Source: an uncultured Chloroflexia bacterium
Lineage (GTDB): Bacteria; Chloroflexota; UBA6077; JACCZL01
Length of the DNA: 64,000 nt
Assembly (NCBI GenBank): GCA_963765765.1
Contig: CAVXYC010000015.1
Location: forward strand, 608,001 to 672,000
Reading direction: 5' to 3'
Positions within the stretch are counted from its first letter, which is position 1. The number at the start of each line of letters is the position of its first letter. The position numbers were made by a program, and so were the translations under genes. Under the pieces are notes generated by a model, which was not told the DNA's origin, searched no databases, and worked only from the letters and a program-made list of their open reading frames with translations. This document shows, piece by piece, positions 9,701 to 51,423 of this stretch.

Positions 9701-9739
9701 TATGTCCAGAGCGCGCGCTCAAGAAAGGGAGCTCAGCTC

Positions 9740-18536: not shown

Positions 18537-19518
18537 TTAGGGATACTGGCTTGCAGTGGCTTTGAGCCCTGCCTCGGCGCTGCTCCGTTCTTCATCCGCC
18601 AGCGACTCCAAAAGCCGCGTCACCGCGATGGCCGCGGTGGTCGCATCGCCGGTGGCGTTGGTAATTTGACGAACGAATTGATGTCGAACGTCCCCAGCGC
18701 AGAAGATACCCGGCTGGGAAGTCTCCATCTTATCGTCGGTGATGATGAAGCCCATCTCATCTTTCTCGATCGGGTCACGAAAGATATTGCTGGTGGGATC
18801 AAATCCTACATAAATGAAGATTCCGCCGACCTCGACCTCTTTCTCTGTCCCGTCCACGACGTTCTTCGTTTTGAGCTTTTGAACCTTGCCTTCGCCAATG
18901 ATCTCTTCGATGATCGTGTTCCAGACAACTTCGATCTTCTCGTTGGCAAAAAGACGCTCCTGCAGGACGCTCTCAGCGCGTAATTTATCGCGACGGTGGA
19001 ACAGCAGGACCTTGCTTGCATAGCGTGTCAGAAACGTCGCTTCCTCAACGGCGGCGTCGCCACCGCCCACGACCGCAAGGACCTGTCCACGGAAGAACGC
19101 GCCGTCACAGATGGCACAATACGACACGCCTCTTCCACCGAGCTCCGCCTCGCCCGGGCACGCCAAGTTTTCGAGGCGTTCCGCCACTGCAAACGATGAC
19201 GGCTTTAGCCCGATACTCGTCACCTTCGTCTGTTTTGACGACTTTCTCTTTACCGTCGGTGTAGATCTCCGTGACGGTGCCGTATTCAATTGTGGCCCCG
19301 AATTCAAGCGCCTGCTCCTCGAAGACCTGTGCCATCTCGTGCCCGGTGATGCTCTTGAAGCCGGGATAGTCCTCGATGAGCTCGGTGTTCAACAGCTCGC
19401 CGCCAGGGCCCATCTTCTCCACGATGATCGTGCTGAGGTTGCCTCGGCCCGTGTAGAGCGCCGCCGTTAGGCCAGCCGGGCCCGCGCCAACGATCACCAC
19501 GTCACTCGTTTTTTCCAT
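18537..19518 (-). CDS. trxB: Thioredoxin-disulfide reductase (frameshift ~19157)
   Basis: GAGPAGLTAALY, GRGVSYCAICDG, VGGGDAAVEEA, PGIFCAGDVR. Confidence 0.95.
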
Positions 19519-19684
19519 ATTTAATCCTCGTCAAGCGCTGCTCGCTGGATGTCTGAGCATCGCCCAACTACTCCCGTTTGAACAAACGCCCCCAGGGTGA
19601 CTCGTATTCCGCTTGGAAATCAACGGGACGAGCAACCGGGCGTTCGTCTAAGTATAGGCACGCCTTCGAGAGCCGAACCATCGC

Positions 19685-23285: not shown

Positions 23286-25571
23286 GTGAACGTGGCGCAG
23301 TTTGTCGATCGCTTCCTCAGATCATCGTCCGCCCGAGCCAACGTCACTTCCGTCCAGCACCTTGCGCCTCAGCCTGCGCAGTGGGCCGAGTTCCCTCCAG
23401 GAATCGACGCTCGCCTGACCGCGGCGCTTGCGCGCCGGGGCGTTCAGCGACTCTACACGCACCAGGCCGAGGCCATTGATCGGGCTATGGCTGGTGAAAA
23501 CGTCGTCACTGTCACTCCGACCGCTTCAGGCAAGACGCTTTGCTACAACGTGCCCGTCCTTCAATCGGTCCTTAATGATCACTCGTCGAGGGCACTCTAC
23601 CTCTTCCCTACTAAGGCGCTTGCTCAAGATCAATTGCGCGAGCTCTCGGGGTTGGTAGACACCTTGGACGTGGACATCAAGGCGTACACGTACGACGGTG
23701 ACACGCCGGCGGATGCGCGAAGGGCCGTGCGCGCGGCCGGCCACATTGTCGTGACGAATCCGGACATGCTCCACACGGGTATTCTCCCGCATCACACGCG
23801 CTGGGTACGGCTCTTCGAGAATCTGCGCTATATCGTCATCGACGAGCTTCATCAGTATCGTGGAGTGTTCGGGAGCCACCTGGCCAACGTACTGCGCAGA
23901 CTTCTCCGCATCTGCGAGTTCTATGGAGCGTCGCCAAAGTTCATTTGCAGCTCGGCGACGATCGCCAATCCCGATGAGCTGGCCGTCAGACTCACCGGAC
24001 AGCCCTTTCGACTCGTAAACAAAAATGGTGCTCCGACCTCCGAGAAATTCATCCTTTTCTATAACCCGCCGGTGGTGAATCAGCAGCTCGGAATACGGGC
24101 AGGCTCCTCGCAGACCTCGCGCCGACTCGCGGGCGAGCTTCTGGCGAACGACATTCAGACGATCGTGTTTGCGCGAAGCCGCCTGGGCGTGGAGATTCTC
24201 GTCAGCGAGCTAAAGCAGCTCGCCGCCTCACGCGGCACGTCGCCGGACGTTGTCCAGGGCTACCGCGCCGGTTATTTGCCAAATGAACGTCGCGCCATTG
24301 AGCGCGGCATCAAAGACGGGCAGATCCGTTCAATCGTGGCCACCAACGCGCTCGAGCTCGGCGTGGATATCGGCGGACTGGAGGCGGCCGTGCTGAACGG
24401 CTATCCGGGCAGTATCGCTAGCGCCTGGCAACAAATGGGGCGCGTGGGACGTCGAGAAGGCACATCGCTGGCGATCTATGTGGCGAGTTCATCGCCGCTG
24501 GACCAGTTTCTTGTTACACGCCCGGATTACTTTTTCTCGCAGTCACCCGAAGCCGCCCTGGTGCACCCAGACAACCTCGTGATCCTGGCAAACCACCTGC
24601 GCTGTGCGGCCTTCGAGCTGCCGTTCAACCAGAGCGAACGATTTGGCGAGAACGAATCCACCGAAGAGATTCTGGAATTTCTAGCCGAGGAGCAGGTGGT
24701 GCGTCACGCGGGCGGTCGGTGGTTCTGGATGTCCGAGCGATATCCCGCCGAGGGGCTTAGTTTGCGTAGCGCGGCGATCGATAACTTCGTCATCATCGAG
24801 TCCGGACCTCGCCCGCGAGTCATTGGTGAAATGGATCGCGCATCGGCGCCCATGTTGATCCACGAGGAGGCGATCTACATTCATCTGGGTCAGCAGTATC
24901 AGGTAGAGAAGCTGGACTGGGAAGAGAAGAAGGCGTTCGTCAAGGCCGTCAACGTGGACTACTACACGGATGCCGAGATGGCCGTTGATCTGAAAATTCT
25001 GGACATTTTTGCCGAGACCGAGGCTGAGTCGCCGAGAGCCGCTCACGGTGAGGTGAGCGTGACGGCCCAGGCAACGATCTTCAAGAAGCTCAAGTTCGAT
25101 ACGCATGAGAATATTGGCTGGGGAAAGATTCAGCTCCCGGAAGAAGAAATCCACACTTCGGCATTCTGGATGGCGATCCCGGCCAGAAGTGTCGCCGACA
25201 TGCCGCGAGCCGCATTGGAGAGTGGGCTCATGGGCATGGCAAACCTGCTGGTGAATCTTGCGCCGCTCTTTCTCATGTGCGACCCTCGCGATCTTCGGTC
25301 CGAGACAGAGATTCGTTCGCCTTTCACGGGAGAGCCGACGGTGTATCTCTACGAGCGCAATCCGGGTGGCGTCGGGCTCTCTGAGAAGCTCTTCTACACT
25401 CGTCGCCAGCTCATTCAGTCCGCGCAGGATCTGTTAACCGGTTGCGCGTGTCCAAATGGATGCCCGTCGTGTGTCGGCGCCCATCACCTCGTGGGCTTCG
25501 ACGGGAAACCGTCCACGCTGGAGCTATTCCGTCGAATGGGCGTTCAGAGTCAGCGGCACGCGATCGCATGA
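23286..25571 (+). CDS. mrfA: DEAH-box helicase with DUF1998 (MrfA/YprA/Hrq1 family)
   Basis: LYTHQAEA, TPTASGKT, DELH, ELGVDIG, QQMGRVGR, C-terminal CDPRD...CACPNGCPSC. Confidence 0.9.
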   Translation: MNVAQFVDRFLRSSSARANVTSVQHLAPQPAQWAEFPPGIDARLTAALARRGVQRLYTHQAEAIDRAMAGENVVTVTPTASGKTLCYNVPVLQSVLNDHSSRALYLFPTKALAQDQLRELSGLVDTLDVDIKAYTYDGDTPADARRAVRAAGHIVVTNPDMLHTGILPHHTRWVRLFENLRYIVIDELHQYRGVFGSHLANVLRRLLRICEFYGASPKFICSSATIANPDELAVRLTGQPFRLVNKNGAPTSEKFILFYNPPVVNQQLGIRAGSSQTSRRLAGELLANDIQTIVFARSRLGVEILVSELKQLAASRGTSPDVVQGYRAGYLPNERRAIERGIKDGQIRSIVATNALELGVDIGGLEAAVLNGYPGSIASAWQQMGRVGRREGTSLAIYVASSSPLDQFLVTRPDYFFSQSPEAALVHPDNLVILANHLRCAAFELPFNQSERFGENESTEEILEFLAEEQVVRHAGGRWFWMSERYPAEGLSLRSAAIDNFVIIESGPRPRVIGEMDRASAPMLIHEEAIYIHLGQQYQVEKLDWEEKKAFVKAVNVDYYTDAEMAVDLKILDIFAETEAESPRAAHGEVSVTAQATIFKKLKFDTHENIGWGKIQLPEEEIHTSAFWMAIPARSVADMPRAALESGLMGMANLLVNLAPLFLMCDPRDLRSETEIRSPFTGEPTVYLYERNPGGVGLSEKLFYTRRQLIQSAQDLLTGCACPNGCPSCVGAHHLVGFDGKPSTLELFRRMGVQSQRHAIA

Positions 25572-26837
25572 CCACCGCGACCGCGCCCCGCATTTCGGCT
25601 GACCGTCTCCGGACAGCCCTGGGTACGCGGGACCCTAAGCGGGCCCCTCAGCCTGCGCCTCGACGTCATGCCGCGTTGGAAGCGCTCTACCCGGGGCGCG
25701 AGATCGAGAACGAGTATGGACGGTGCTTCGTTGCCGAATGGACGTTTCCACTCGAGCACCCGCACGGCCGTCAACCGCTCGAGCAGGCATTGCTGCTGAA
25801 TGATCGCGGAGCGGCCTGTATTGGGCGGGCCCTGGGGTACAAGGCCCCTGAACGCCCCGCGTTCCTGGACACTGAAACCACTGGGCTTTCCGGTGGCACG
25901 GGAACGTACGCTTTTCTCGTGGGCATCGGGTCTATCGAGGGCGATGCCGCCATTGTTCGGCAGTACTTCATGCGCGACTACGACGAAGAGCCCGCTCTGC
26001 TGGAGGCGGTGTCACAGCAGCTCGCGCGGCATGATGCTGTCATCACCTACAACGGCAAGACCTTTGACCTTCCACTCATCGAGACCCGTTTCATCGCCTC
26101 CCGCCGATCCACTGACGTCATCCCGCCGTCGCATCTGGATTTGCTCTTTCCGACACGACGGCTTCTTCGAGGCTTTCTCGAGACATGCACGCTGGCCAAC
26201 GTCGAGCGATCGGTTCTACGTCATCATCGAGTGGGGGACCTGCCGGGTTGGATGATTCCGTCGTTGTACTTTCAGTTTGTTCGTGAAGGTGACCCACGTC
26301 TGATTGGTGGCGTGTTAGAGCACAACCGAGACGACATCTTGAGCCTTTTCGGGCTCACGGGCTGGCTCTGCCGCGTTTACCAGTCGCCCACCGAGAGCCG
26401 ATGCGACGCCCGACTTCTCACGCGAGTGTCCAGGACGTACGAATTGCTGGGCTGGCGAGATGAAGCCGTGCGTGTGCTCAGCTCACGCGGTCTCCGAAGC
26501 CTCGTCGGGAGATGGCCGTGCGGAGGCCGCGCTGGACCTGGCTCGGCTGCATCGGATGATGGGGGCCGGCGAGGACGCAGAGCCAATGTGGCACATCGCG
26601 GCGGAGCATCCCGCGCTGGGATTGGAAGCGTTGATCGCCTGGGCGAAGTATCTCGAGCACGAGCGGCGGGACTTCGATAAGGCACAAGGTGTGCTGGACC
26701 GAGCGCTCGTTCGGATTCAGCTCAGGTACGGTCCATCGCCAGATGCCGCGATCGACGCTCTCCGCCAGGCGCTCGAGTATCGACTTGCCCGAATCGTGCG
26801 TCGCCAAGGGCGCCGAGATCCGTCCGGCATGAAGTGA
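25568..26837 (+). CDS. mrfB: RNase H-like exonuclease with TPR region (MrfB/YprB family; frameshift ~26485)
   Basis: FLDTETTGLSGGTG, YNGKTFD, HLDLL, HNRDD; AKYLEHERRDF in the next frame; ATGA overlap with the helicase. Confidence 0.85.
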
Positions 26838-28013: not shown

Positions 28014-28124
28014 GACATCCACTCCTTCCGCGAGCACATGTAATCACACATCTAAATGCAGAATTCACACCATGCTGTGAGCCAATAGTCGGCATGCGCT
28101 TTGCAGCAGAGGTCGCACGGAGAG

Positions 28125-28922
28125 ATGGAAAACGAGCACGTTCGCATGGGGCAGCGAACAGAGCCAGCCTGGCTCGAGCTGCAATCAATTCGATGGGAGC
28201 CGGCAGGGCGCGCGCTGCTGAGCAACCTCGGTGATGGAGCGGGGCTCCATGCTGTGGACGTCGGCTGTGGGGACCTGGGCTGGTTACGTGTGTTGAGCGA
28301 GTGGGTGGGGCCGGATGGCTCAGTGACAGGTACCGACGTAGGTGACGATCTCATTGAGGCCGCGCAACGTCGGATCGAGCAAGAAGATCTTTCGAATGTC
28401 ACCGTGGTACGCGATGATTTGTTCGATTCTCGACTCCCAGCCAGGAGTTTTGATCTAGTTCACGCTCGATTCGCCGTCACTCCATTGGATCGCGTGAATC
28501 AGCAGCTCGAGTCGTATCTGAGACTCCTCCGGAGCAGTGGCCGGATTGTCCTGGAGGACAACGACATCGGCTCGTGGCATTTCAATCCGCCGGCGCCCGC
28601 CACGGAGCGTTTGATTCATCTCATAGCCGAGTCGTTTCTCGCAGCCGGTGAGAGTTTCAACGATGGCCGGCGGCAGCCCCAACGGCTTCGTGAGCTGGGA
28701 TTGGAGCCACACGTCTCGGCACAGGTACTGGCGCTGGCACCCGCGGATCGGTATTTGCGCCTCCCCATCCACTTCACATTCACGCTCGAGGATCGGCTTT
28801 TGAAGCTGGTTACAACTGACGAGCTGGAAACTCTGAGGCAGCAGGCAGAAGGGGAGATCGCCTCACCGGGTCGATGGGGCACCACGTTCACAGTGATTCA
28901 GAGCTGGGCGGTAGTGCCCTGA
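28125..28922 (+). CDS. Class I SAM-dependent methyltransferase
   Basis: VDVGCG, VGPDGSVTGTD, SFDLVHARF. Confidence 0.85.
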   Translation: MENEHVRMGQRTEPAWLELQSIRWEPAGRALLSNLGDGAGLHAVDVGCGDLGWLRVLSEWVGPDGSVTGTDVGDDLIEAAQRRIEQEDLSNVTVVRDDLFDSRLPARSFDLVHARFAVTPLDRVNQQLESYLRLLRSSGRIVLEDNDIGSWHFNPPAPATERLIHLIAESFLAAGESFNDGRRQPQRLRELGLEPHVSAQVLALAPADRYLRLPIHFTFTLEDRLLKLVTTDELETLRQQAEGEIASPGRWGTTFTVIQSWAVVP

Positions 28923-29004
28923 GCTCTCGCAACCGCGATAGTGGGATGCTCACCGCTAGGCTGAATCATGGAGCGACACGTTCGAGCGTGCCACCCCATG
29001 AGAC

Positions 29005-29166
29005 TTATTTCTTTTTGGTCTCGCCAGCCTCGCGTCGTTCTTTGTTGACGGTGCGAGCCGCACGCTCTTCAGCTTCATCTTTGGAGACCCCGCGCTCTTC
29101 GTAGGAGTCTTTAATGTGCTCGTACTGACGGTCGCGTTTGCTACCTTCTCTCACTCCGCGTGGCAT
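29005..29166 (-). CDS. 53-aa small hydrophilic protein (family often labelled plasmid stabilization protein)
   Basis: MPRGVREGSKRDRQYEHIKDSYEERGVSKDEAEERAARTVNKERREAGETKKK; strong RBS agggagg; below the ORF-track cutoff. Confidence 0.85.
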   Translation of the reverse strand: MPRGVREGSKRDRQYEHIKDSYEERGVSKDEAEERAARTVNKERREAGETKKK

Positions 29167-29309
29167 GGTTTACCTCCCTTTCGCTGCAATGTTGCAGATA
29201 TTGGACCGTCCGAATCCCAACATTAGTGAGGCATGGAGGTGGCGCGGGCTCGGCGGTGCCAATCGCGGTCGCTTGGTGTCCGGTGGCAACGCTGAAATCG
29301 TCGGTTAAG

Positions 29310-29525
29310 GCACGCTACATTTGGAAATCCGGCCGCATTGTAGCGTGGCCGAGATCAACTATTTGGTCTCTAGACCCGAGAATGACAGTGGAACTGGGTG
29401 GCCGGTACCGCGGGAGCGTAGCGAGTATCGAAGAACGCCAGCCTTCGGGACCACGGCCATCCAGCGGCCCGGCCCCGGAGGGCCGCCTCCGACCAGAGCT
29501 GCCAACACAGGAAGGTCCCTAGACG
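29310..29525. ncRNA. Candidate structured non-coding RNA, identity unknown
   Basis: Several stems: cacgctaca/tgtagcgtg, gagatcaa/ttggtctc, ctgggtggccg/cggccatccag, cggccc/gggccg; no credible ORF. Confidence 0.3.
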
Positions 29526-29557
29526 GCGTCACTTTGTCTATCGCAGACGAGCGACGA

Positions 29558-30210
29558 TTAGTGCGCTTCGCTCAGTGCCCCAAGGCCCGCCTGGCAGGCG
29601 AGGTGGTCCTGCTCCGTGGTGGGGCTGCCGGCCACTCCGATGGCAGCGACGATCTCGCCTAGCTCCACCAGCGGTATAGCTCCCTGCTCGATGAGCAGGC
29701 GAGCGGGAACCACTTCCTCGTCCGCCGGAGGCTCCTGGTCGGCTTTGAGCTGGTTAGTGCCCAGGCGGAAGACCAGCGAGGTGTAAGCTTTGCGATCGGC
29801 CCGCGCAGCGGCGGAGCGTTCGGTGCCCGGCATGGCCATGGATGCCACAGACTTTCCGCCGCGATCCAGCACCACAGCCGCAACCGTAAGGCCGATTCGC
29901 TCAGCGTATGCCTGCACTCCATCCAGCATGCGCTTGGCGGATTCCACCGCGAACCTCTGCTCGGCCTTGTTCTCCGTGAAGAAGTCTGCATTGATCTGAA
30001 TATATTGCTGCCACTGCGCTGGCACCTCGGAGTCTAGAAAGACGGCATCCACGGGGCACACCAGCACGCACTGCTCGCACTCAATGCACACGTCCGGATC
30101 GATGTAATTCTGGGGGAGTCCGGTGTCGTGTGGATGCACGCCGCCGGGCAAACGTCCACGCAGGCGCCATTCTTTTCGTCGATGCACGGCTCCACGATGA
30201 CATAGGTCAT
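29558..30210 (-). CDS. Ferredoxin (FdxA-type) fused to a GlcG/HbpS-like domain (frameshift ~30115)
   Basis: MTYVIVEPCIDEKNGACVDVCPAACIH / YIDPDVCIECEQCVLVCPVDAV...INADFF, then VAAVVLDRGG...ADRKAYTS...GAIPLV...AAIGVAGS...QDH. Confidence 0.85.
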
Positions 30211-30809
30211 GGCGTTGGCTCCAGCGCATCTGGCTCCAGCGGCAGCTCAGTCACGATCACCTCCGCGGCGTGCACGCATGGTCGCAGCCGAGGGCTCTCC
30301 AGTCGCCCCTCGGAGTTCATCGTGCCGAGGCCGGCAATCGCCGCCAGGCGCTCGGCATCCATCGTTTTGGATCTGTTGGCTCGATAGCCCATCTCGCGTA
30401 TGTACGCCGCCAGGTTGAAAGTGGCAAACAGGCCCTTTACCGTAGGTGCCTGGCCACCGCTTCCGGGCGCTGTGCGGGTATCGTGGTCGGCCTGGAGCAA
30501 TGAGACGATGCCGAAGAAAGGGCCTGCGGCACCCGGGGCGTCCTCAAACGGGCTCGCCGCTAGCTGAACGATACCCACCTCGTTGATGCCGAGATAGTGT
30601 CCCAGCTCCTTGACATGGCTGGCCATCACGTTGGCTGAGTGGACCTCAGTACGCGTGGGATGCACCGAACCCTCTTCCGCGTCCGCCATCGCTAACGTCA
30701 CCACGTTCCGCGCGTCGGCGGGCGGCCGGTTGATGAACGCGTCCCAATACGGGTCCTCGGGCTCAGTGTGCCGAATCCTGAACGGACCGATCCGCATGGC
30801 AGCCCCCAT
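30207..30809 (-). CDS. Reductive-dehalogenase-like cobalamin-binding domain protein lacking Fe-S motifs
   Basis: MASHVKELGHYLGINEVGI, LAAYIREMGYRA, LAAIAGLG, VIVTELPLEPD parallel the upstream gene; ends before the CxxCxxC motifs. Confidence 0.7.
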   Translation of the reverse strand: MGAAMRIGPFRIRHTEPEDPYWDAFINRPPADARNVVTLAMADAEEGSVHPTRTEVHSANVMASHVKELGHYLGINEVGIVQLAASPFEDAPGAAGPFFGIVSLLQADHDTRTAPGSGGQAPTVKGLFATFNLAAYIREMGYRANRSKTMDAERLAAIAGLGTMNSEGRLESPRLRPCVHAAEVIVTELPLEPDALEPTP

Positions 30810-32179
30810 CAGCTCAACTTGACGAAGCGGTTGGTGTTCTCCTTCAGCGGCGCGTAGTAGCCGATGTCGTCCAGCGGCACGTCGATCTTGTGCTCGCCTT
30901 CACCGTGCTGCGCTGTACAGCCGGCGACGGTACACGCCATGGAGCCGGGCTTGATCCCACTGTCATAGCCCAGCCAGCGCACCCGCTTGCGCGGCACCTT
31001 GCCCCAGAAGCGATCATCGATCCACTTGAGCGAGCGCACCAGCGCTGGCCTCGCCTTTACGGGCGTGTGCTTCAGCGTCTGCACTGTCATCGTTCGCCAC
31101 CAGGTGTTCGGCTTGGTGAACGGGCAGACCGTGGAGCAGGTGAGGCAGACGGACCAGTGATCCGTCATGAGCGGCCGAAGCTTGTAACACGGCTCCCACT
31201 TGATCTTGTACTTCTCAACGCCGTTGTAGACCTGCTTCCCTTCAAAGGAGATGCTGTTGGTAGGACAGGTCTCGGCGCACTTACGGCAGATCTTGCAGAA
31301 ATCCTCAACGCCGATGTCGATCGGCTTGTCAGGCACCAGCGGCAGATCGGTCAAGATGGCGTCGTTCAGATGAATCCGGGCGCCAAACTCCTCGGAGATG
31401 ATCAAGCCGTTGCGCCCAAGCTCGCCGATGCCGGCCGCCAGCGCCGCGGCCTGGGGATTCACCTTTCCGCGGATGGCGGTGTAGCCGAGTTCGCGAATGT
31501 AGCCCTCGAGCTGCGTCAGTACGAGTCCCAGGTTCATGAGTGTGAACTCATACGCGGCATCGCCGATGTGATGGCGATGCGCCTGGGCCATCTCATAGTT
31601 CCAGGCCACGGGCGTGACCAGGACGTATGGATATGCCGTGCACAGCTCTTCCTGGGTCATCGTGCCGTCGTCGACGCTTGTGCGGAAGCCCACATCGTGC
31701 AGCGCGCCACCGCCGTACAGGAACGATGGGTGGGAGCGAGCCACGCCAACGATATCCGCGCCGAACGTCTTGGCCACCCGTTTGATGTGGCCAGTCATGA
31801 CGGCTGGATCCGCGACGGGCGTGCGCTCGGGATTAGTGCTGCCCTTCTTAAGGCCGCGCAGGTGGGCCTGAAAGACGTTCTTGTTATCGCGCCCGCGATT
31901 TGGGGAATTGATGCGGCTAAGAGGATCCTTACTCACGCTGTTGCGGTACCAGTTGAACAGCGACTTGCCCACCTCACCGCGCGACACGCGCGGGTGCGGC
32001 GTCTCCTCAGGTGCCACGTTGACGACCCTACCCACCACGTGGACCGAGCGACCCATGTTTGGCGGGGGGTACTCGGCATTGCCGTCCGGCTCGTAGAACG
32101 GCCGGTTTGGGACGTCAGTTTGCTGGGCCGATTGGTCGGCCTGCGACGGAGTTTCGTTAACGCGTGCTTCTGTTGCCAT
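30809..32179 (-). CDS. Reductive dehalogenase (RdhA/QueG superfamily) protein, cobalamin plus 2x[4Fe-4S], no TAT signal
   Basis: IKRVAKTFGADIVGVA, YIRELGYTA, AAGIGELGRNG, TDLPLVPDKPID, CKICRKCAETCP, CLTCSTVCP. Confidence 0.85.
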   Translation of the reverse strand: MATEARVNETPSQADQSAQQTDVPNRPFYEPDGNAEYPPPNMGRSVHVVGRVVNVAPEETPHPRVSRGEVGKSLFNWYRNSVSKDPLSRINSPNRGRDNKNVFQAHLRGLKKGSTNPERTPVADPAVMTGHIKRVAKTFGADIVGVARSHPSFLYGGGALHDVGFRTSVDDGTMTQEELCTAYPYVLVTPVAWNYEMAQAHRHHIGDAAYEFTLMNLGLVLTQLEGYIRELGYTAIRGKVNPQAAALAAGIGELGRNGLIISEEFGARIHLNDAILTDLPLVPDKPIDIGVEDFCKICRKCAETCPTNSISFEGKQVYNGVEKYKIKWEPCYKLRPLMTDHWSVCLTCSTVCPFTKPNTWWRTMTVQTLKHTPVKARPALVRSLKWIDDRFWGKVPRKRVRWLGYDSGIKPGSMACTVAGCTAQHGEGEHKIDVPLDDIGYYAPLKENTNRFVKLS

Positions 32180-32387
32180 GTCTCTCCCAAACCGGGCTTC
32201 CCTTTTATCCGTCAAATTCGGAGGGATCAAGCCCATAGCGGACCAACGGCAAACTACCAGACGAACTACTCATTCTATATGACGAAACACTGAGCGAGCG
32301 CAAATCCGCTGTGCAAATCCCCCCACGTAGGGCGCGACTCCATGCCGATATCCTGTAACCAGTGAAACGGAAAGGACCCTGGATTTC

Positions 32388-32936
32388 ATGAATCCGCCAG
32401 CGAGGCATATCGTAACGGTCTTTGGCGCATCGCGCGTCGGCCCCGACTCGGCTGAATATCGACTTGGCTATGAATTGGGATTGCGTCTTGGCGAAGCCGG
32501 GTTTTCCATCTGCAACGGCGGTTACGACGGGACGATGGAGGCAGTAGCCAAGGGCATCCGTGAATCCGGCGGCCGAAGTATCGGCGTACTCGTGGAGTCG
32601 CTCGAAGGCCGCACGCACAATCCCTACATCGACGAGGTCGAGCGTACGGAAGGCCTGCTCTATCGGCTCGAGCGATTGGTGACGCTCGGCGAGGCCTACC
32701 TCGTCCTCCCCGGCGGCATCGGCACGCTGCTAGAGCTTGCGCTCGTCTGGAACCTTTCCACGGTTCGCGAGCTCGAAAAGCCAATCATTCTCATAGGAAA
32801 AGAATGGCGTCAGGCTATCGATAAGCTGAGCGAGCACATCCTCTTGCGCGAGGGCGACCGCGAGCGGCTGATTCACGTGCACAGTACAGACGCGGTCGTT
32901 TCAATGCTGCGTGAGCACTTCGCGGCCGCCAGCTAA
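32388..32936 (+). CDS. LOG family (Rossmann-fold nucleotide-binding) protein
   Basis: VTVFGAS, NGGYDGTMEAVAKG, LPGGIGTLLEL. Confidence 0.9.
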   Translation: MNPPARHIVTVFGASRVGPDSAEYRLGYELGLRLGEAGFSICNGGYDGTMEAVAKGIRESGGRSIGVLVESLEGRTHNPYIDEVERTEGLLYRLERLVTLGEAYLVLPGGIGTLLELALVWNLSTVRELEKPIILIGKEWRQAIDKLSEHILLREGDRERLIHVHSTDAVVSMLREHFAAAS

Positions 32937-33599: not shown

Positions 33600-34581
33600 A
33601 TGGTATTGCTGCTTAATGAGGCTGAGGTTTCTGATCTCTACACCGTCAGGAATGCAATCGAGGATGTGGAGATGGCGCTACGGGAGCTTGGCGAAGGTGC
33701 CGCGACCAATCAGCCGCGCAACCGCGTGGTCACCGGTAACGGCTCATTGCAGGTGATGTCCGGCTTCGTTCCTGGGGCTCAGGCGCTGGGCCTCAAGTAC
33801 TATTCAGCCTCTGCGGTCCGGTGCAAGCTTTGTCGTGTCGCTATTCGATAGCGAGACGGGCCAGCTCCTGGCAATCATGGAAGGAAATACGCTCGGCCAG
33901 ATTCGCACCGGCGCGGCCTCCGGCGTCGCGAGCAAGGTGCTGGCTCGCGCGGATGCTTCGTCCGTCTCCGTGATTGGAAGCGGCTGGCAGGCCAGGACAC
34001 AGCTCGAGGCGGTCTGCGCGGTCCGAAACATTGAACGAGCCAATGTGTTCAGTCGCGATTCCGAACGCCGTGGCGCGTTTGCCCGGGATATGTCCGAGAA
34101 GCTGGGAATCCCCGTGACGGCGGCTGATACCGGTGAAGAGGCCGTACGCGGGACTGATATCGTCATCGTCATCACCAACGCTCGAACGCCGGTGCTCGAG
34201 GGCCAGTGGCTTGAGCCAGGCATGCACGTAAACGCGGCCGGATCGAATCGCGCAAACGCCGCTGAGCTGGATGTCGCAGCGGTCGCCCGTGCGAACGTCA
34301 TTACGGTGGACCAGCTCGCCGATGCCAAAATCGAGTCGGGCGACCTCATCGCGGCTGTTCAGGCGGACGCCGTTGCCTGGGAGAACGTTATCGAGCTGGG
34401 AGCCATCCTGGCCGGGAAGGCGGAGGGGCGCGTCTCGGACGAGCAGATCACGCTCTTTGAGTCTCAAGGACTCGCGATCGAGGACCTGGTGGCAGCGAGA
34501 AGGGTTTACGACCTTGCAACGAAGCAAGGCATAGGGACGGAGATCCCGCTATTCACAAGCGGAGGTGGAAAGCCTCGCTGA
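33600..34581 (+). CDS. Ornithine cyclodeaminase/mu-crystallin family (frameshift ~33820)
   Basis: MVLLLNEAEV...QPRNR...LGLKYY / LFDSETGQLLAIMEG...IRTGAASG, IGSGWQA, FESQGLAIED. Confidence 0.9.
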
Positions 34582-42646: not shown

Positions 42647-42769
42647 GCAATCCCAAGTAGTCAACTAGTCTCTCGCCATGGAATTATGGACGTGATGGCA
42701 ACGCTATCACGTCTCTCAATTGCTCACCGACGAATCTCAGGACGGCACTGTCGGATGGGCGCTCGGCGC

Positions 42770-42945
42770 CTACTCACGCGCCAGCATGGCAACGGCATCC
42801 AACTCCAGGTTCGCGTAGTGGTCGCCGCTGACATTGATCTTCACCTTCTTGATCGTGCCGGCGGTGAACGTGTTCGGCGTCGTGTACTCTTTGCTCACCG
42901 CGTCGCCGCTGAACCGCCCCACGCAGAGCCCGTCGCCGCCTTCAT
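42770..42945 (-). pseudogene. C-terminal fragment of an arylsulfatase
   Basis: Manual translation GDGLCVGRFSGDAVSKEYTTPNTFTAGTIKKVKINVSGDHYANLELDAVAMLARE*. Confidence 0.7.
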
Positions 42946-43498
42946 CGCCTTCGGTCAGGAGTTACCAGGCACGCGACAGCATCATTTCGAGCTGATGAAG
43001 CGTGTCGACTCCGCTGTCCTTCTGCACGTCATCAGCTTGGGGGACGCAGTGTCCATCCAGGTAGGTCTCATGAACCGACTTGGCCCCATGAAGCCGGGAG
43101 AGATCTGGGAGAACGACTTCACCAGTTGGATCCCCGAATTCGACAAGCAATTATCGCGGAAAATCGCCCGACGGATGGATAGTCACGCGGGCGCCCTATC
43201 CTGAGTAAGGACTACGACCGGTCTGAGGCGCTCGGAAGCGTTGATCTTACCCGACCATGACCTGCCTTGGGGCGCGGATCAGCGCGAATCTGACCTTCGC
43301 TGACTGCCTCTATTGGGTTTTTCGCGACGCCGTAGCGATTAACTGGTCCTATGCTGCTAGTCATCCAGTTCGCGGAAGCTACCAGTTCAGAGGAGAGGAG
43401 CTATGATCCGCCCAGATGATGATCTTGGCGCCGTGAGTGGGCTAGCGCCGTCGGGGTGTACCCTGGGGGCAACGCTGGAAAGCCATTCGCTTGCGGGA

Positions 43499-43729
43499 TC
43501 AGGGCCCCGCACCCGGATACCCATAGAGGGCGGTCGCTCCCAGCATGACGAGCGCGATGATGATCATGGCGAGGCCGACGATGGCCCCCTGGCCGTTCGT
43601 CGGGAGCTCGGGTGGCACAGGCATCCGCGATCTGTCTGACACTAGTCTTCCCCCGGGCATCCAGCTATGTCCCACGCTGGCGAAGCTCTTACTTAAACGG
43701 CCCGTAAGTTTATCAATGTCAATATCCAT
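43499..43729 (-). CDS. Small single-TM hypothetical protein
   Basis: MDIDIDKLTG...GAIVGLAMIIIALVMLGATALYG. Confidence 0.45.
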   Translation of the reverse strand: MDIDIDKLTGRLSKSFASVGHSWMPGGRLVSDRSRMPVPPELPTNGQGAIVGLAMIIIALVMLGATALYGYPGAGP

Positions 43730-43794
43730 TTCGATTTTACTTGTGCTTGTCACTGACGGGCCCGGGTCCTGCATTCATCGCCGCCAACTGGTGC

Positions 43795-44070
43795 TTAGAT
43801 CCTGGGGACCCGCCGGAACGCATCCGCGGGAAGCCGATCAACAAGATTGCGCCGATGAAGGCGACGATGATGGTCCCGATGAAGCCCGCGCTGTTTCCGG
43901 GCGCTATCGCTCCAATCAGCAATCCGCCCACGAAAGCCCCCATGATCTCGACGACGATGTCGCCGACCAAGCCGGCGTCGCTCCCCTTCATGAACTTTCC
44001 GGCAACCCGAGCCGGAGTTCAGGTTCACAATCAGCCACGTAATCAGTCCACCAGGCTCAAGTACTATGAC
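43795..44070 (-). pseudogene. Degenerate GlsB/YeaQ/YmgE family gene
   Basis: GLITWLIV / MKGSDAGLVGDIVVEIMGAFVGG...GTIIVAFIGAILL; paralog of 57381-57671. Confidence 0.75.
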
Positions 44071-44314
44071 GCACTCCTTTGGTACGGAATGGGGATGAGT
44101 GAGAGCGCAATTCGGCTGCGGAGTGGAGGGACCAGCGCCTGAGTATCGAAATTCTGGTGCGGCTCAATTGGCAGTGTCGCGATCGCCTAACGCGCTACAT
44201 CGGCATCCGGCTCATGCCCTCTGGAGCGCATTCATTTTCCCACGAACCGACTCTCGCCGCTGAAGTCCAGGGTCGGACGCATGGGTCACTGAATCATCGG
44301 CCCATCGGATTGGC

Positions 44315-44542
44315 TTACTCCCGCCTATCGAACGGCTCGAGATCCTCCAGCATGCACGAACGAGGCTCGGATGTGTCCCAGCTTACCTTGCCCCCTTCTG
44401 CCACCGAGCTAATCACGCGGAGTCGAACATGATACAAGGCGTCGTCTCCCGATCCTTGCACTGCGTCGACAATGCCGCGCTGATAGAGCGACTTGACCCT
44501 GACGGGCTGGTTCTTGATTGGCGGCCACGGATCCTGTTGCAT
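44315..44542 (-). CDS. Small hypothetical protein, WPP/SH3-like family copy 1
   Basis: WPPIKNQPVRVKS...GIVDAVQGSGDDALYHV...LEDLEP; aligns with 61866-62096. Confidence 0.7.
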   Translation of the reverse strand: MQQDPWPPIKNQPVRVKSLYQRGIVDAVQGSGDDALYHVRLRVISSVAEGGKVSWDTSEPRSCMLEDLEPFDRRE

Positions 44543-44603
44543 CTCTTGTCCTTCACTGCGATCGGTGCATCTTTTCTACTCGGGCCGGTGGACCGCCGAA
44601 CGG

Positions 44604-44912
44604 TCAGGCGCGAGAAGCCACGAAAGGTGGCCCGTTCACCACGGCCACGCAGCTCACTTCCCAGACGTCAGCGTCCGGAAACCACGCTCGTCGCGTCGCG
44701 ACACCCGATGGCGGCAGACGATCCATGCCGCTTCCGTCCGGGACCGAGATAAGCCGGATACGCGATCGCGCGCCCGTTCCGCGCAGCTCCACCACCGTGA
44801 CCGGAAAATGGCTCAGCGGATTGATACGCGCCTGATGTACCACCTCACCGAACGTGTGGCTGCTCGTCACGGCGCGCCAGTGCGCGCCATACTCTGAAGG
44901 TGCGGTCGTCAT
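44604..44912 (-). CDS. Hypothetical protein
   Basis: RBS aaagga before ATG 44912; no recognisable motif. Confidence 0.4.
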   Translation of the reverse strand: MTTAPSEYGAHWRAVTSSHTFGEVVHQARINPLSHFPVTVVELRGTGARSRIRLISVPDGSGMDRLPPSGVATRRAWFPDADVWEVSCVAVVNGPPFVASRA

Positions 44913-45100
44913 AATCGTCCTTTCATCGGTCCATCGGGCCGACGCCACAGGCGTTTTGCGCTGATCTTCCGCCCAACCGCACCCGGCGATCGCCTCCACG
45001 CCGGCCTTTTAGCACATTCGAGTGTCAGGAGCATCGGCTCGTTCAGTGATCCTGAGCGCCCCCGGCCGGCATCGCCAGCGTGCTCCGTGCGCGGCTCGCC

Positions 45101-45430
45101 TTAGCCGGGCTGGGTTCGGTCGCCGGCGACCCAGGCGCCCGCTCGGATCGCGCGGCACATTTCGGTGAAGAGCGCGTACACCTCCGGATCATCGGTGCAC
45201 CCCACCAGCTCGGCCGGGCTGATGGCGGGGCTATACGCCCCCCGGACGTAGGCGTTCTTCGTGAGGTCCGGCAGCTCCGATTTCAGGTATGCAACACCCG
45301 TGAGAATGCCGCGTTCGAGCAGGACCGACCGCTGACTGCTATCGAAGTGCGCGGGATGCCCGTCGAGCCGAAGATCCAGAGCTCGTTGGCCCAGCCGATC
45401 CTGCACCCACGCCACATTAGTGATGATCAC
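45101..45430 (-). CDS. Hypothetical protein
   Basis: RBS aggagaagg before GTG 45430; divergent from the XRE gene. Confidence 0.55.
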   Translation of the reverse strand: MIITNVAWVQDRLGQRALDLRLDGHPAHFDSSQRSVLLERGILTGVAYLKSELPDLTKNAYVRGAYSPAISPAELVGCTDDPEVYALFTEMCRAIRAGAWVAGDRTQPG

Positions 45431-45524
45431 GTTCCTTCTCCTTGGCCCAGGTCCTCGGCACACGCTACCCGAATGCTTCGGCACGGGCGTGCCGGCACCC
45501 CGCGGAGCAGCCAGCGCTTCACGA

Positions 45525-45580
45525 TATAGCATTATCATAGCATATTGCTATAATTGTATTGTTTTCCGGTAACATGTTAA
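45525..45580 (+). promoter_or_regulatory. AT-rich promoter/operator of the XRE operon
   Basis: Extended -10 TGcTATAAT (45546-45554) overlapped by palindrome ATAGCA-TAT-TGCTAT (45537-45551); TAACATGTTA at 45570-45579. Confidence 0.65.
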
Positions 45581-45624
45581 TGTTTCGACGACATCTTTCT
45601 ACTAACACTCGAAATGAGACTCTC

Positions 45625-45975
45625 ATGACCTTCGCTGCTAAGCTTCGGCGCGTGCGGCTCGAGCGTTTTCTTTCCCAGGGCGAGCTCGCCCGCCGCGCCG
45701 GGATCCGCCCTGCGACTATCACGCGACTCGAGGCCGCAACAACCGTCCCATCGATGCGCACGGTGCGCGCCCTGGCCGAGGCCCTGGAGATTGAGCCACA
45801 CCAGCTCGCTGATCCGCTGGAAGTGGCGGAAGTCCGCCGACTTTCCAACCCCACAAAGAGTCGGGACGATGATCGACTGGGCGCCTGGAATGACGACGGC
45901 GGCGCGGCGGACTCGAAGGACGGCCGACCGATCACCGAAGCGCCCAAGCCAATGCTGAACGGACTACCGACATGA
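45625..45975 (+). CDS. XRE family HTH regulator
   Basis: KLRRVRLERFLSQGELARRAGIRPATITRLE...PSMRTVRALAEALEI. Confidence 0.9.
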   Translation: MTFAAKLRRVRLERFLSQGELARRAGIRPATITRLEAATTVPSMRTVRALAEALEIEPHQLADPLEVAEVRRLSNPTKSRDDDRLGAWNDDGGAADSKDGRPITEAPKPMLNGLPT

Positions 45976-46415
45976 GTAACTTTCAGGACCAACTGCGACA
46001 ATTCGAGCACGCGTCGGATCACGTCGCATCGGAAGAATCCCAGCAGCAGGCGCTGCTCGCTCGCAATCGGGCGGAACAGATCACGGCCGCACACGCTCTG
46101 CGCGGGATTATTGACTCGTGCATCAGCGAGGCCAAGCTCGTTGTGCCATCGATGCGGACCGAGCACGCCGCGAGTGACCAGCCCCTCCAGGAATGGACGC
46201 TGCGCTGGAAGGATGGGGATCGCGGCCTGAAAATTCAACTGCTGCAAGACCAGGGAGTCGTTTGGTGGACATGGTTTGGCCACGGACGAACGTCGGCCGT
46301 GGCGAAACGATCGGCCCGCGACGCCGATCAGAAGTTCATCGAGAACCTTATCGCTGCCCTCGCGGATCCGGCCCCGTGGCAGCGCGGTGGCTACCCGCCC
46401 GCCCCGACGTGGTAG
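45972..46415 (+). CDS. Hypothetical protein, paralog A
   Basis: ATGA overlap with XRE; full-length similarity to 46504-46932. Confidence 0.75.
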   Translation: MSNFQDQLRQFEHASDHVASEESQQQALLARNRAEQITAAHALRGIIDSCISEAKLVVPSMRTEHAASDQPLQEWTLRWKDGDRGLKIQLLQDQGVVWWTWFGHGRTSAVAKRSARDADQKFIENLIAALADPAPWQRGGYPPAPTW

Positions 46416-46503
46416 AGAGGAAGCGCGACGCAACGTCACGGTCGACGGCACCGAATTCGGCCCCGCGCAGCATGCGCGGGGTGAAGCGCCGTCCAGAGAG
46501 AGC

Positions 46504-46932
46504 ATGAACAAATTCCAGGATGAACTCAGGCGTTTGGAGCAGGAATCTGAGCGCAAGGCCGCACGAGACGCCGCTGCGCAGGCGGCGGAGCAGCGGAAGA
46601 AGGATCGGGCCGTGGCGGCTGCGCGGACGCTGGAACGAGTCATCGAGAAGTGCGTGGAGGAAGCGCAAGCGGCCTCGTCAATCGCGGTCGAACGGGCAAA
46701 CGCTGGAGATGGGAAGGCGATCTGGGTCCTGTGGTGGAAGGATCGGAGCCGAGGGGTCGAGATCAAGCTGGCGACGCGCGACGGGCAGTTGTGCTGGAGT
46801 TGGCAGGCCGATCGGAAATCGCCGGTAACATCCCGCGCCGCCACGGATATCGACGAAGCCTTCATTCAACAGCTCGTAATCACCCTGGCCGACCAATCAG
46901 CCTGGCGAGCCGGCGGTTTTCCCACCCTCTAG
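46504..46932 (+). CDS. Hypothetical protein, paralog B
   Basis: MNKFQDELRRLE...WVLWWKDRSRGVEIKL...FIQQLVITLADQSAWRAGGFP. Confidence 0.75.
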   Translation: MNKFQDELRRLEQESERKAARDAAAQAAEQRKKDRAVAAARTLERVIEKCVEEAQAASSIAVERANAGDGKAIWVLWWKDRSRGVEIKLATRDGQLCWSWQADRKSPVTSRAATDIDEAFIQQLVITLADQSAWRAGGFPTL

Positions 46933-47332
46933 AACTCCCCCAATCACCCGACCTGGCGGCTGCGCACGGACCGTCCGCTCGTCCAGCGCGTCGTCCGAAT
47001 GACACCAACGGCCGACAATCACGAAGCCGCGCTCGAGAACTGCGTGCCCCAACCGTGACGCGGGCGGGTCAGCCCGGTGGGCTTCCGCTAGCCCGCGGCG
47101 ATGGCGAGCCCCCAGCAGCCCGATCACGCGCACGGTTCGGGAAGAGGCGGTGCGCGAGCGTGCAGGGACGGTCAACCTCCGGTGCCGATTCCCACAGGCG
47201 CAATGACAGCCATGCTCGCGTTGCCAGTCACTGGCTCCGAGAACCATTGGGCTGTAAGCTGGCAGATCGTGAATCGGCTGTCAAACACGCCTCGGCTCAC
47301 GAGATCGTAGGGCACTAGGCCTCACTGTTCCC

Positions 47333-47544
47333 CTCGCTGAATTTCGGGCGACCATCGGCGATGATTGACGGGGCGTGTTGTCCCGACGGGCGTCCCACGC
47401 GATCCGACTATGGCGAGAGGAGTGCCAGGAGGCGTCGCATGGCATCGCCCAGCTCCTGGCGACGTCCCTCATCTGAGCGTTGGCTCGGGTGCATGCGTTC
47501 CCATTCGTGGACATGGTCCACATCGGCAACCGTAATGCGTGCGA
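47333..47544 (-). repeat. ~210-bp repeat, copy 1 (inverted relative to 51186-51401)
   Basis: 30-nt identical core ccccgtcaatcatcgccgatggtcgcccga plus a diverged coding part. Confidence 0.85.
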
Positions 47545-47668
47545 GGCGATGGGCGTCCATCATCGTCTCTCCGACCGGTTGGGGTGGGATTCCGTGAAAT
47601 GCGCCACGCCGCACGGCGGCCGCGAGATCGTTCCGCAGCATCTCCAGCTCGCCCCAGTCCACCAGCAT
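47408..47668 (-). CDS. Small hypothetical protein (ARITxADVDHVxEW family)
   Basis: Synonymous third-position differences versus the 51140 copy support this frame. Confidence 0.6.
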   Translation of the reverse strand: MLVDWGELEMLRNDLAAAVRRGAFHGIPPQPVGETMMDAHRLARITVADVDHVHEWERMHPSQRSDEGRRQELGDAMRRLLALLSP

Positions 47669-47921
47669 TTCAAACCGCGCACTTTGCTTACTTTAAGTGT
47701 CTCTCGAACGGTGACGTCTGGATAGATGCACCGGTGCATAAAGATGCACGGAGATACGAACGTGGCAGGGAATCATCTCGTCGAGAGAGGGCCAGGACAC
47801 CACCCCGCCCCGCAGCGGCACGAGAAACGGCCGCTGCGGAACAGCCACTCTCGCTCGTCTGGCTGGTGATAGTGGTGCATGCACATCTGCATCTTCTCCA
47901 CCGACGAGCGCTTCGGATAGG

Positions 47922-48359
47922 ATGACGACCGTGGCCGCTCCCCATGCTCCCCGGAAGTCGGTGGTCGTGATTGACGATGACCCCGACATCACGTTCGTGC
48001 TCTGCACGGCTCTGGAGGATGACGGGTATCGCGTCGTCTGTTACACCCAGGCATCGATCGCGTTGGAGTCGGTGGTTGCAGACCAGCCCGACCTGGTGAT
48101 CCTGGACTGGTGGCTGCCCGAGAGCGGCGGAAACACCCTGCTCTCCGCCCTGCGCGAGAACCCTCGCACCGCCCACGTGCCGGTCCTCGTGTGCACGGCG
48201 GACGCCACCGTCCTCGACTATCGCGATGCGCTCGCGCGGAATGGCGCGGACATCCTGCTCAAACCGTTCGAGCTGGACGGCCTGCCCACCATGGTGGGGC
48301 GGATGACGGGCGGGAATTCGTCGCCTGACCCGTGGGTTGAATCCAGTAGCGCGCAATGA
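47922..48359 (+). CDS. Single-domain response regulator (receiver)
   Basis: VIDDD, PDLVILDWWLP, PVLVCTA, KPF. Confidence 0.9.
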   Translation: MTTVAAPHAPRKSVVVIDDDPDITFVLCTALEDDGYRVVCYTQASIALESVVADQPDLVILDWWLPESGGNTLLSALRENPRTAHVPVLVCTADATVLDYRDALARNGADILLKPFELDGLPTMVGRMTGGNSSPDPWVESSSAQ

Positions 48360-48377
48360 TGGCGGAACTGCGGGGAG

Positions 48378-48880: not shown

Positions 48881-48889
48881 ACTGTTAGG

Positions 48890-50063: not shown

Positions 50064-50195
50064 CGCGCTGTCCTCACATCACCGTATTCGCGAGCCCGAC
50101 GGAAAAACCCTTGCGGGAAATCGATCAGCGCGCTGCCGGGCGGGGCTGGAAGAAGGGAAACCGCCACGCAAACGACCGGTCCGCCACGACTGCGA

Positions 50196-51401: not shown

Positions 51402-51423
51402 CTGAACGCTGAGGCGTATTGCC

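Follow-up and report, generated by a model that had tools for sequence, protein, structure and literature searches.

Soil, groundwater and ocean Chloroflexota, like other uncultured groups, have an abundance of RdhA-like genes that come without a twin-arginine translocation (TAT) signal and without RdhB, and the function of these genes has largely been guessed. We analyzed one such gene, together with the two genes that follow it, in a stretch of 64,000 nucleotides (nt) from an uncultured Chloroflexia bacterium (contig CAVXYC010000015.1, positions 608,001 to 672,000; hereafter the window). Among the described systems, catabolic RdhAs of the NpRdhA type carry a fused, vestigial and cobalamin-less copy of their core domain at the N-terminus; the NpRdhA gene adjoins ferredoxin genes, a ferredoxin-dependent electron supply has been proposed for the enzyme, and Bacillus megaterium has served as its expression host (PMC10463259, accessible part). 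A 'simplified cytosolic type' of ~395 amino acids (aa) without the vestigial domain is described from Desulfobacterota and Chloroflexota, cytosolic RdhA-like genes being common in the latter, and the accessible part of the same source makes no mention of a separately encoded vestigial domain (PMC12219181).

A literature search (supplements excluded) for 'reductive dehalogenase' with DUF336 or GlcG returned nothing; with HbpS, heme-degrading or PduO it returned, judging by titles and the openings of abstracts, seemingly general B12 or tetrapyrrole papers only; and with 'vestigial' it led only to the fused domain described in the accessible parts of PMC10463259 and PMC12219181. Neither a ferredoxin-DUF336 fusion nor its linkage to an RdhA-like enzyme was found described in the literature searched. 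The locus analyzed here is new in being a split, ferredoxin-DUF336-linked form of the known cytoplasmic RdhA architecture with a different active-site signature. Its three genes, read from the open reading frames (ORFs) of the window, lie on the minus strand and span 32179-29558, with the following features:

30809-32179, minus strand: gene 1, cytoplasmic RdhA-family predicted corrinoid/2x[4Fe-4S] reductase, 456 aa
31550-31582, minus strand: motif A200-H-R-H-H-I-G-D-A-A-Y210 of gene 1, family-specific, at the position of the dehalogenase active-site helix
31262-31297, minus strand: first Fe-S motif of gene 1, C295-x2-C298-x2-C301-x3-C305-P, invariant Cys; Pfam Fer4_7, 30.6 bits
31121-31189, minus strand: second Fe-S motif of gene 1, C331 ... 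C345-x2-C348-x3-C352-P, invariant Cys; aligns to the second cluster of PceA and NpRdhA
30905-30934, minus strand: CTVAGCTAQH motif in the family-specific C-terminal tail (~90 aa) of gene 1
30807-30811, minus strand: TGATG stop/start overlap of genes 1 and 2 (gene 1 stop 30811-30809, gene 2 ATG 30809-30807)
30207-30809, minus strand: gene 2, stand-alone Fe-S-less copy of the RdhA core domain (vestigial type), 200 aa
30207-30210, minus strand: ATGA start/stop overlap of genes 2 and 3 (gene 2 stop 30209-30207, gene 3 ATG 30210-30208)
29558-30210, minus strand: gene 3, fusion of a 7Fe-type ferredoxin and a DUF336/HbpS-like domain, 217 aa in relatives, with a 1-nt deletion here
30112-30116, minus strand: site of the gene 3 frameshift, a run of five C with one base fewer than in relatives

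We consider it somewhat probable (roughly 0.6) that these genes encode a cytoplasmic, non-respiratory corrinoid/iron-sulfur reductase of the RdhA superfamily that is built from separate parts, and a soluble heteromer with a dedicated ferredoxin appears to be the best reading of their sequences. This reading is carried by the homologies and folds of the products, by the strict linkage of the three genes across many lineages and by the purifying selection on gene 2. On the heterodimer, on the path of the electrons and on the cofactors we infer the following: gene 1 would be the catalytic subunit, with a predicted cobalamin-binding core and two [4Fe-4S] clusters; gene 2 would be a free-standing, non-catalytic copy of the core that pairs 1:1 with gene 1 as a pseudo-protomer, in the place taken by the second protomer in the PceA homodimer or by the fused vestigial N-terminal domain in NpRdhA, a monomer; the 7Fe ferredoxin of gene 3 would pass low-potential electrons to the Fe-S clusters of gene 1; and the DUF336 domain of gene 3 would bind a small ligand, possibly a tetrapyrrole, a substrate or a signal.

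Like the catabolic enzymes NpRdhA (PDB 4RAS, 6ZXU-6ZY1), BhbA and JtRdhA, which are cytoplasmic, the operon has neither a TAT signal nor an RdhB. Two parts of NpRdhA recur in it: the cobalamin core with two [4Fe-4S] clusters, which forms the catalytic half (residues 270-639) and is the best fold match of the gene 1 model (Z 29.1, root-mean-square deviation (rmsd) 2.9 Å, 323 residues aligned), and the vestigial core copy (residues 39-220), which is the best match of the gene 2 model (Z 17.2, rmsd 2.5 Å, 153 residues aligned). Since gene 2 resembles the N-terminal domain of NpRdhA and gene 1 its catalytic half, genes 1 and 2 look like a split NpRdhA; going by the models, they appear to tile its architecture on separate genes and in reversed order. 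Unlike in NpRdhA, however, the vestigial domain is a gene of its own that follows the catalytic gene, gene 1 itself being without it; the operon family does not conserve the columns of the catalytic Tyr and Lys and has an HRHH..D..Y motif instead; conserved N- and C-terminal extensions are peculiar to the family; and the ferredoxin is fused to DUF336. Gene 1 also differs from the self-sufficient catabolic RdhAs in having no C-terminal PDOR reductase domain. Respiratory RdhA (PceA, PDB 4UQU, 8Q4H), which works with RdhB, shares its fold and Fe-S motifs with gene 1, whereas the operon lacks a twin-arginine signal and a membrane anchor gene, and the columns of Tyr246 and Arg305 are changed; where PceA is a homodimer, gene 1 would probably form a heterodimer with gene 2 instead.

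QueG is, like gene 1, a cytoplasmic member of the superfamily, and that it acts on a conserved, non-halogenated substrate provides a precedent for a role other than dehalogenation. Gene 1 nevertheless falls outside bona fide QueG, a possibility raised in an earlier note on this DNA: it scored 65.3 bits against the QueG family TIGR00276 (cut-off 200) and matched the QueG fold at Z 14, while a true QueG with 374.9 bits is encoded elsewhere in the genome (G000:C15:288837-289841). The same note had placed the Fe-S-less paralog beside CblC. CblC (MMACHC) and CblD (MMADHC) do share with the operon a nitroreductase-like B12 fold and presumably the combination of an active protein with an inactive paralog partner, but they have no Fe-S domain and the likeness is at the level of the fold only (Z 5.7-7.8); CblC is the more distant comparison, and the closer counterpart is the vestigial, cobalamin-less domain of NpRdhA (PMC10463259, accessible part).

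For gene 1, the RdhA cobalamin fold, the two Fe-S motifs and the lack of a twin-arginine signal, all claimed earlier, were borne out. Gene 1 scored 160.4 bits against the NCBIfam family TIGR02486 (RDH) and so just passes its cut-off of 160.35; in the genome search the score was 156.8 bits for gene 1, or 162.3 with neighboring stretches in frame, and gene 1 is the sole RdhA above this cut-off in the genome. When compared with PDB sequences, gene 1 as a single sequence matched PceA (4uqu, 5.8e-33) and NpRdhA (1.8e-24), and its family profile matched PceA (2.9e-37), NpRdhA (4.8e-35), PceA of the membrane complex (8q4h, 2.6e-32) and QueG (7e-12). The AlphaFold model, which is of moderate confidence (pLDDT 68.3, pTM 0.72), further resembles PceA (Z 26-27.8), QueG (Z 14) and MMACHC (Z 5.7-6.5). 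The Pfam Dehalogenase domain was matched by neither gene 1 nor gene 2 at E 0.1. In the alignment of 32 family sequences in which we judged conservation, eight Cys are invariant (C295, C298, C301, C305, C331, C345, C348 and C352). Residues 1-43 contain, on direct reading, neither an RR pair nor a hydrophobic stretch, and the N-terminus is hydrophilic and variable between relatives. Although the ORF of gene 1 is open from 32236, relatives begin at the position of ATG 32179, which is preceded by a GGGAGAG box on its 5' side and which we take as the start because the 98%-identical relative P0200 has 456 aa.

Also invariant in the 32 sequences are A200, H201, R202, H203, G206, D207 and Y210. The HRHH patch noted earlier therefore stands in its first three residues, whereas position 204, a His in the window, is variable. 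The C-terminal CTVAGC..H motif is likewise real, C416, G420, C421 and H425 being at least 90% conserved, but it is absent from three Dehalococcoidia-type loci (L002, L006 and L015). For the gene 1 tail the ratio of non-synonymous to synonymous change (dN/dS) is 0.08. Three conserved segments (72-101, 200-206 and 398-456) were modelled with low confidence and may become ordered only with a partner or cofactor.

Gene 2 had been described as repeating the motifs of the cobalamin domain and stopping before the Fe-S domain, and profile-profile alignment (hhalign) agrees with this: gene 2 aligns with residues 79-287 of gene 1 (probability 99.9, E 9.9e-36, 26% identity) and the alignment ends just before C295, with gaps in gene 2 opposite the HRHHIGDAAY motif. 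Gene 2 has no match in Pfam, a weak match to the RDH family (2.6e-7) and, as a single sequence, no match to PDB sequences at E<=10, whereas its family profile matched NpRdhA at 4e-21, both in the N-terminal domain (residues 59-225, 40.2 bits) and in the cobalamin core (residues 345-501, 36.2 bits). Its model (pLDDT 83.9, pTM 0.80) has weaker matches to the PceA core (Z 12-12.7), QueG (Z ~11), CblD (Z 7.8) and MMACHC (Z 6.0-6.6). A decaying duplicate, the alternative considered in the earlier note, does not fit what we found: dN/dS is 0.10 against contig L025 and 0.09 against contig L026 (28-29 synonymous and 9 non-synonymous differences), indicating purifying selection; a word-indexed search found 79 homologues (119-210 aa, 44-94% identity); and among 1.84 billion representatives of clusters at 50% identity, 122 matched with E<=1e-3, 75 of them with E<=1e-10. 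In the Atlas, 26 clusters with the name 'hypothetical protein' belong to the family.

Two of these 122 representatives are natural fusions. In P0386 (603 aa), a gene-2-like domain (residues 17-207, probability 99.1, E 8e-19) is followed by a gene-1-like enzyme (residues 238-589, E 1e-47), and P0410 (575 aa) likewise contains both domain types, with the gene-2-like one N-terminal to the catalytic one. Like NpRdhA itself, these fusions argue that both parts work in one complex.

The expectation that the order of the three genes is conserved across genomes proved correct, synteny being near-invariant in three sets of loci: (i) a metagenome set, comprising the best 80 of 529 stretches that encode a gene 2 relative; (ii) a genome set, comprising 79 loci kept of 163 stretches from a one-genome-per-species collection; and (iii) a reverse set found from gene 1, comprising 79 loci kept of 311 stretches (48-71% identity). 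In the metagenome set, gene 1 lies directly upstream of gene 2 in all 65 loci with at least 300 nt upstream, gene 3 directly downstream in all 60 with at least 300 nt downstream, and the DUF336 part is fused in 48 of the 49 with at least 750 nt downstream; the corresponding counts in the genome set are 77/78, 73/76 and 67/71. Conversely, gene 2 is next after the gene 1 homologue in 75 of the 76 loci of the reverse set that extend at least 400 nt downstream. A stand-alone DUF336 gene stands upstream of gene 1 in 36 of 72 genome loci and, confirmed by Pfam, in six metagenome loci; the three-gene form is that of the window and of the Dehalococcoidia-type loci, and the other seven DUF336 genes of this genome lie elsewhere.

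The unit occurs in many uncultured bacteria of soil and sea. The groups given in the titles of the records are Chloroflexota (Dehalococcoidia, Chloroflexia, SAR202), Candidatus Binatia, 'delta proteobacterium', Rokuibacteriota, Methylomirabilota, Acidiferrales/Acidoferrum, Eisenbacteria, Eremiobacteraeota, Gammaproteobacteria, Thermodesulfobacteriota and Syntrophobacteraceae, and every listed record is a metagenome-assembled genome (MAG). For the genome of the window itself, CysRS found its best matches in Chloroflexia MAGs at only 46-49% identity, which gives a tentative placement in Chloroflexota. The sequencing runs in which parts of the stretch occur come, by their labels, from soil or rhizosphere metagenomes, and the best of them contains a share of 0.38 of the sampled words. 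Contigs from the RNA library X3 (90-99% likeness) extend over a large part of gene 1 and over both junctions between the genes; they give a weak hint that the operon of a relative is transcribed, but could be DNA carry-over. No contig from the runs spans the operon, and stretches without coverage carry no information. In a Pfam survey of neighbors, covering 67 of 106 flanking ORFs of related loci, no gene recurred consistently except the stand-alone DUF336 gene, and no cobalamin-pathway genes were linked; short-chain dehydrogenase/reductase (SDR), enoyl-CoA hydratase, CoA-transferase III, luciferase-like and alpha/beta hydrolase genes each occur in some of the loci.

A first scan of 21 loci had returned six of the three-gene form, 14 with an RdhA-like gene of ~40% identity and no gene 2, and one (L021) with a weak RdhA-like match (~31%). 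In 10 of the 14 loci without gene 2, a plain ferredoxin follows the RdhA-like gene. D207, Y210, H270 and the terminal extensions of gene 1 recur in these relatives, but they have NNSRISDAEY where gene 1 has AHRHHIGDAAY; hence the partner domain goes with the HRHH subfamily. Tandem duplicates of the ~40%-identity gene were seen in four Binatia/'Deltaproteobacteria' MAG loci (L005, L008, L013 and L016), mostly with a plain 7Fe-type ferredoxin after each copy.

Gene 3 had been taken for a ferredoxin joined to a GlcG/HbpS domain. This composition stands, but in the window the two parts do not share one open frame, a frameshift having been overlooked. Pfam recognized an HbpS-like domain (PF03928, 71.8 bits, cut-off 25, residues 94-216) and Fer4 in the window ORF; the 7Fe ferredoxin model NF045480 scored 54.7 bits (cut-off 125) on this truncated ORF. 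In the relative P0080 (217 aa, 95% identical, metagenome), which is intact, residues 3-79 match 7Fe ferredoxins of the FdxA type (1bc6, 3.6e-23; 2v2k, 1.5e-21) and residues 90-213 match HbpS (4bmw, 1.2e-10), OrfY, NahX and EfgA, DUF336 proteins that also include the C-domain of PduO. The Cys pattern, read in P0080 and in the window across the frameshift, is of the [3Fe-4S]+[4Fe-4S] type (C9-x7-C17-x3-C21P...C42-x2-C45-x2-C48-x3-C52P). Fusions of this kind are common: 581 matches were found, and most of the 120 best are 211-228 aa long. The role of tetrapyrrole carrier that the earlier note gave to the GlcG/DUF336 domain is one option among several, as HbpS binds heme (dissociation constant (Kd) 1 µM) and aquocobalamin (Kd 34 µM), while PduOC binds heme and, if at all, cobalamin 'with extremely weak affinity', and EfgA senses formaldehyde (PMC4923194, PMC8153426, accessible parts).

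From its ATG at 30210, gene 3 reads MTYVIVEPCIDEKNGACVDVCPAACIHTTPDSP, and its continuation QNYIDPDVCIECEQC (QNYIDPD...), followed by the GlcG/DUF336 domain, is found in a different frame beyond the C run at 30112-30116. At this site the window has GACTCCCCCAG, and the contigs L025 and L026, both 96% identical, have GACTCTCCCCAG; P0080 runs unbroken across the site (...TTPDSPQNYIDPD...); and the soil contigs X3 (RNA library) and X4 (DNA), ~95-96% identical here, have one extra plus-strand G behind 30111. Both halves of gene 3 are in one frame in 63 of the 64 metagenome loci where both were found. Programmed frameshifting was considered and rejected, relatives being in frame at that site. The one exception, L025, is in frame at the site affected in the window and shows an apparent frame change further downstream (gene 3, L025:628-1277).

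Because relatives are intact and two other, ordinary genes of the window are also frameshifted, we regard the break in gene 3 as most likely an indel error of the assembly. One of the two is a thioredoxin-reductase-like gene (Pyr_redox_2; 18537-19530, minus strand), whose N-terminal GxGxxG part is in the frame 19105-19530, its remainder being in 18537-19388. The second, an ornithine cyclodeaminase/mu-crystallin gene (33600-34581, plus strand), is split near 33835-33851 such that Pfam positions 6-75 fall in 33600-33851 and positions 90-312 in 33835-34581. A real frameshift, which would make gene 3 a recent pseudogene of this strain and leave the operon disabled or rewired, is unlikely in our view. 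It is true that the deletion is present in the assembled sequence, that no sequencing run was shown to contain this exact strain, and that the contigs X1-X4 are relatives at 90-99% likeness and not clearly this strain; yet the part behind the shift still has a dN/dS of 0.20 against L026 (10.5 synonymous and 7.5 non-synonymous differences), nearly all metagenome relatives are in frame, two unrelated genes within 15 kb are frameshifted, one of them TrxB-like, and at least one further gene of the window looks truncated.

We determined by hidden Markov model (HMM) alignment that the column of PceA Y246 and NpRdhA Y426, which we take to be the catalytic Tyr, is L214 in gene 1 and L, Q, G or A in the family, and that the column of PceA R305 and NpRdhA K488, presumably its Arg/Lys partner, is an invariant His (H270) throughout the gene 1 family. 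An invariant Y210 lies four residues before the Tyr column. So aligned, the invariant set H201, R202, H203, D207, Y210 and H270 is found in place of the Tyr and Arg/Lys of known dehalogenases. Usual rdhA genes are multi-copy and fast-diverging, with diversifying organohalide specificities, whereas homologues of gene 1 from many lineages still show 48-71% identity. Given the altered catalytic columns, the single copy in this genome and this level of identity between distant lineages, we think an organohalide no more likely than a conserved substrate that may be non-halogenated; a dehalogenase role for gene 1 is possible.

What the operon does can be read in several ways. It may be a plain catabolic, cytoplasmic reductive dehalogenase for natural organohalides of soil or sea, with gene 2 as structural partner and gene 3 as electron donor. 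Gene 1 reaches the cut-off of the RDH family, its closest folds are NpRdhA and PceA, the source annotation of its homologues is reductive dehalogenase, the NpRdhA gene likewise adjoins ferredoxin genes (PMC10463259, accessible part), and cytosolic RdhA-like genes are common in Chloroflexota (PMC12219181, accessible part). Set against these are the lack of a match to the Pfam Dehalogenase model, the replacement of the Tyr column by L, Q, G or A and of the Arg/Lys column by an invariant His, and a conservation and copy number unlike those of usual rdhA genes; we hold this reading to be rather unlikely. We would also give only limited credence to the opposite proposal in its full form, namely a widespread corrinoid reductase, known so far from uncultured bacteria only, that is not a dehalogenase but acts, as QueG does, on a conserved non-halogenated substrate of the cell or the environment, with a new active site formed by H201, R202, H203, D207, Y210 and H270, an obligatory pseudo-subunit in gene 2 and a DUF336 domain that presents the substrate or the corrinoid; such an enzyme could be a bacterial, Fe-S-wired counterpart of CblC/CblD. 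A CobS gene is present in the genome, which makes at least late cobamide assembly plausible. Two adjacent CobS (PF02654) matches lie in different frames of the genome (G000:C10:110901-112128), representing a duplication or another split gene.

The obligate linkage of the genes would suit a further role for gene 2, in which it would assist maturation or act as a holding factor: gene 2 would cover the dimer face of apo-gene 1 as long as cobalamin and clusters have yet to be inserted, and the DUF336 domains would deliver the corrinoid. The conserved low-confidence segments of gene 1, which might order only with a partner or cofactor, the affinity of HbpS for aquocobalamin (PMC4923194, accessible part) and the second, stand-alone DUF336 gene in half of the genome loci (36/72) are in line with this. 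Nonetheless, we think it improbable: in structure, gene 2 comes closest to a permanently fused domain of NpRdhA, natural fusions exist, translational coupling through TGATG fits equimolar subunits, and neither the extremely weak cobalamin affinity, at best, of PduOC nor the formaldehyde binding of EfgA (accessible parts of the sources above) favors corrinoid delivery. Still less probable, to our mind, is a processing of corrinoids or tetrapyrroles in the manner of CblC/CblD, in which gene 1 would be the active protein, gene 2 its inactive paralog and DUF336 the domain presenting the tetrapyrrole. It draws on the matches of the gene 2 model to CblD and MMACHC and of the gene 1 model to MMACHC given above, on an MMACHC-MMADHC complex with B12 (structure entry 9mrs), on the tetrapyrrole-binding members of DUF336 and on the high conservation, which fits a universal substrate; but common folds also reach Z values of 6-8, the RdhA Fe-S domain, lacking in CblC, is retained in full by gene 1, the window has no B12 riboswitch, and the survey of the flanks found no linked genes of the cobalamin pathway.

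Several observations weigh against the reading that we prefer, a heteromeric reductase with a non-catalytic gene 2 and an altered active site. The ~40%-identity relatives (type B, mostly Binatia/'Deltaproteobacteria' MAGs) lack gene 2, and their ferredoxin is a plain one, so that the partner domain is not needed by all relatives, and the gene 1 homologue of L293 also lacks a gene 2 downstream. Gene 2, which might bind cobalamin, keeps motifs such as AGLG and IREMGY. The flanks of the operon in the window and of the 32 related loci examined yielded no reductase for the ferredoxin. The replacement of the catalytic residues is read from HMM alignments rather than from a structure, and Y210, one helical turn from the expected Tyr, may take over its function; it is precisely in the HRHH loop and in the C-terminal tail that the gene 1 model is poor. 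The heterodimer of genes 1 and 2, for its part, is suggested by homology, linkage and two fusions.

The operon defines a unit, consisting of a catalytic subunit, an obligate vestigial-like partner encoded as its own gene and a dedicated ferredoxin-DUF336 protein. If the heterodimer is true, it clarifies the relation between the dimeric, the pseudo-dimeric and the split members of this enzyme class, and it would account for a possible failure of such genes when they are expressed singly. The changes in the active site, together with the strong conservation, point to a reaction other than the classical one, which would add a new B12 chemistry or substrate, and the linkage would give DUF336, a poorly understood domain, a concrete partner.

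The overlaps TGATG and ATGA, reported earlier, are both present in the sequence, and the reported absence of an rdhB anchor also stands, the neighbors being gene 2, gene 3, a methyltransferase gene (28101-28922) and a LOG/SLOG-like gene (32388-32936), with no gene for a small membrane protein within the operon or adjoining it. As these two flanking genes are on the opposite strand, the three genes form an isolated unit. A scan of 28900-32450 for promoters and terminators found nothing. In the whole window, Rfam detected no cobalamin riboswitch but only an S-adenosylhomocysteine (SAH) riboswitch (RF01057, 51.7 bits; 9611-9680, plus strand), which lies directly upstream of the S-adenosylhomocysteine hydrolase gene (9683-11065).

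Elsewhere in the window, about 17 consecutive ORFs at 42686-52329 have no Pfam match (E 1e-4), with G+C slightly raised (0.62-0.64). The luciferase-like monooxygenase ORF at 6166-6738 (plus strand) covers positions 145-208 of a profile of 314 only and may be another broken gene. A DEAD-box helicase gene with an MrfA Zn-binding domain (23286-25571, plus strand) is followed by an overlapping RNase_H-superfamily gene (25442-26680), and the pair (23286-26680) presumably resembles repair pairs of the MrfA/MrfB type.

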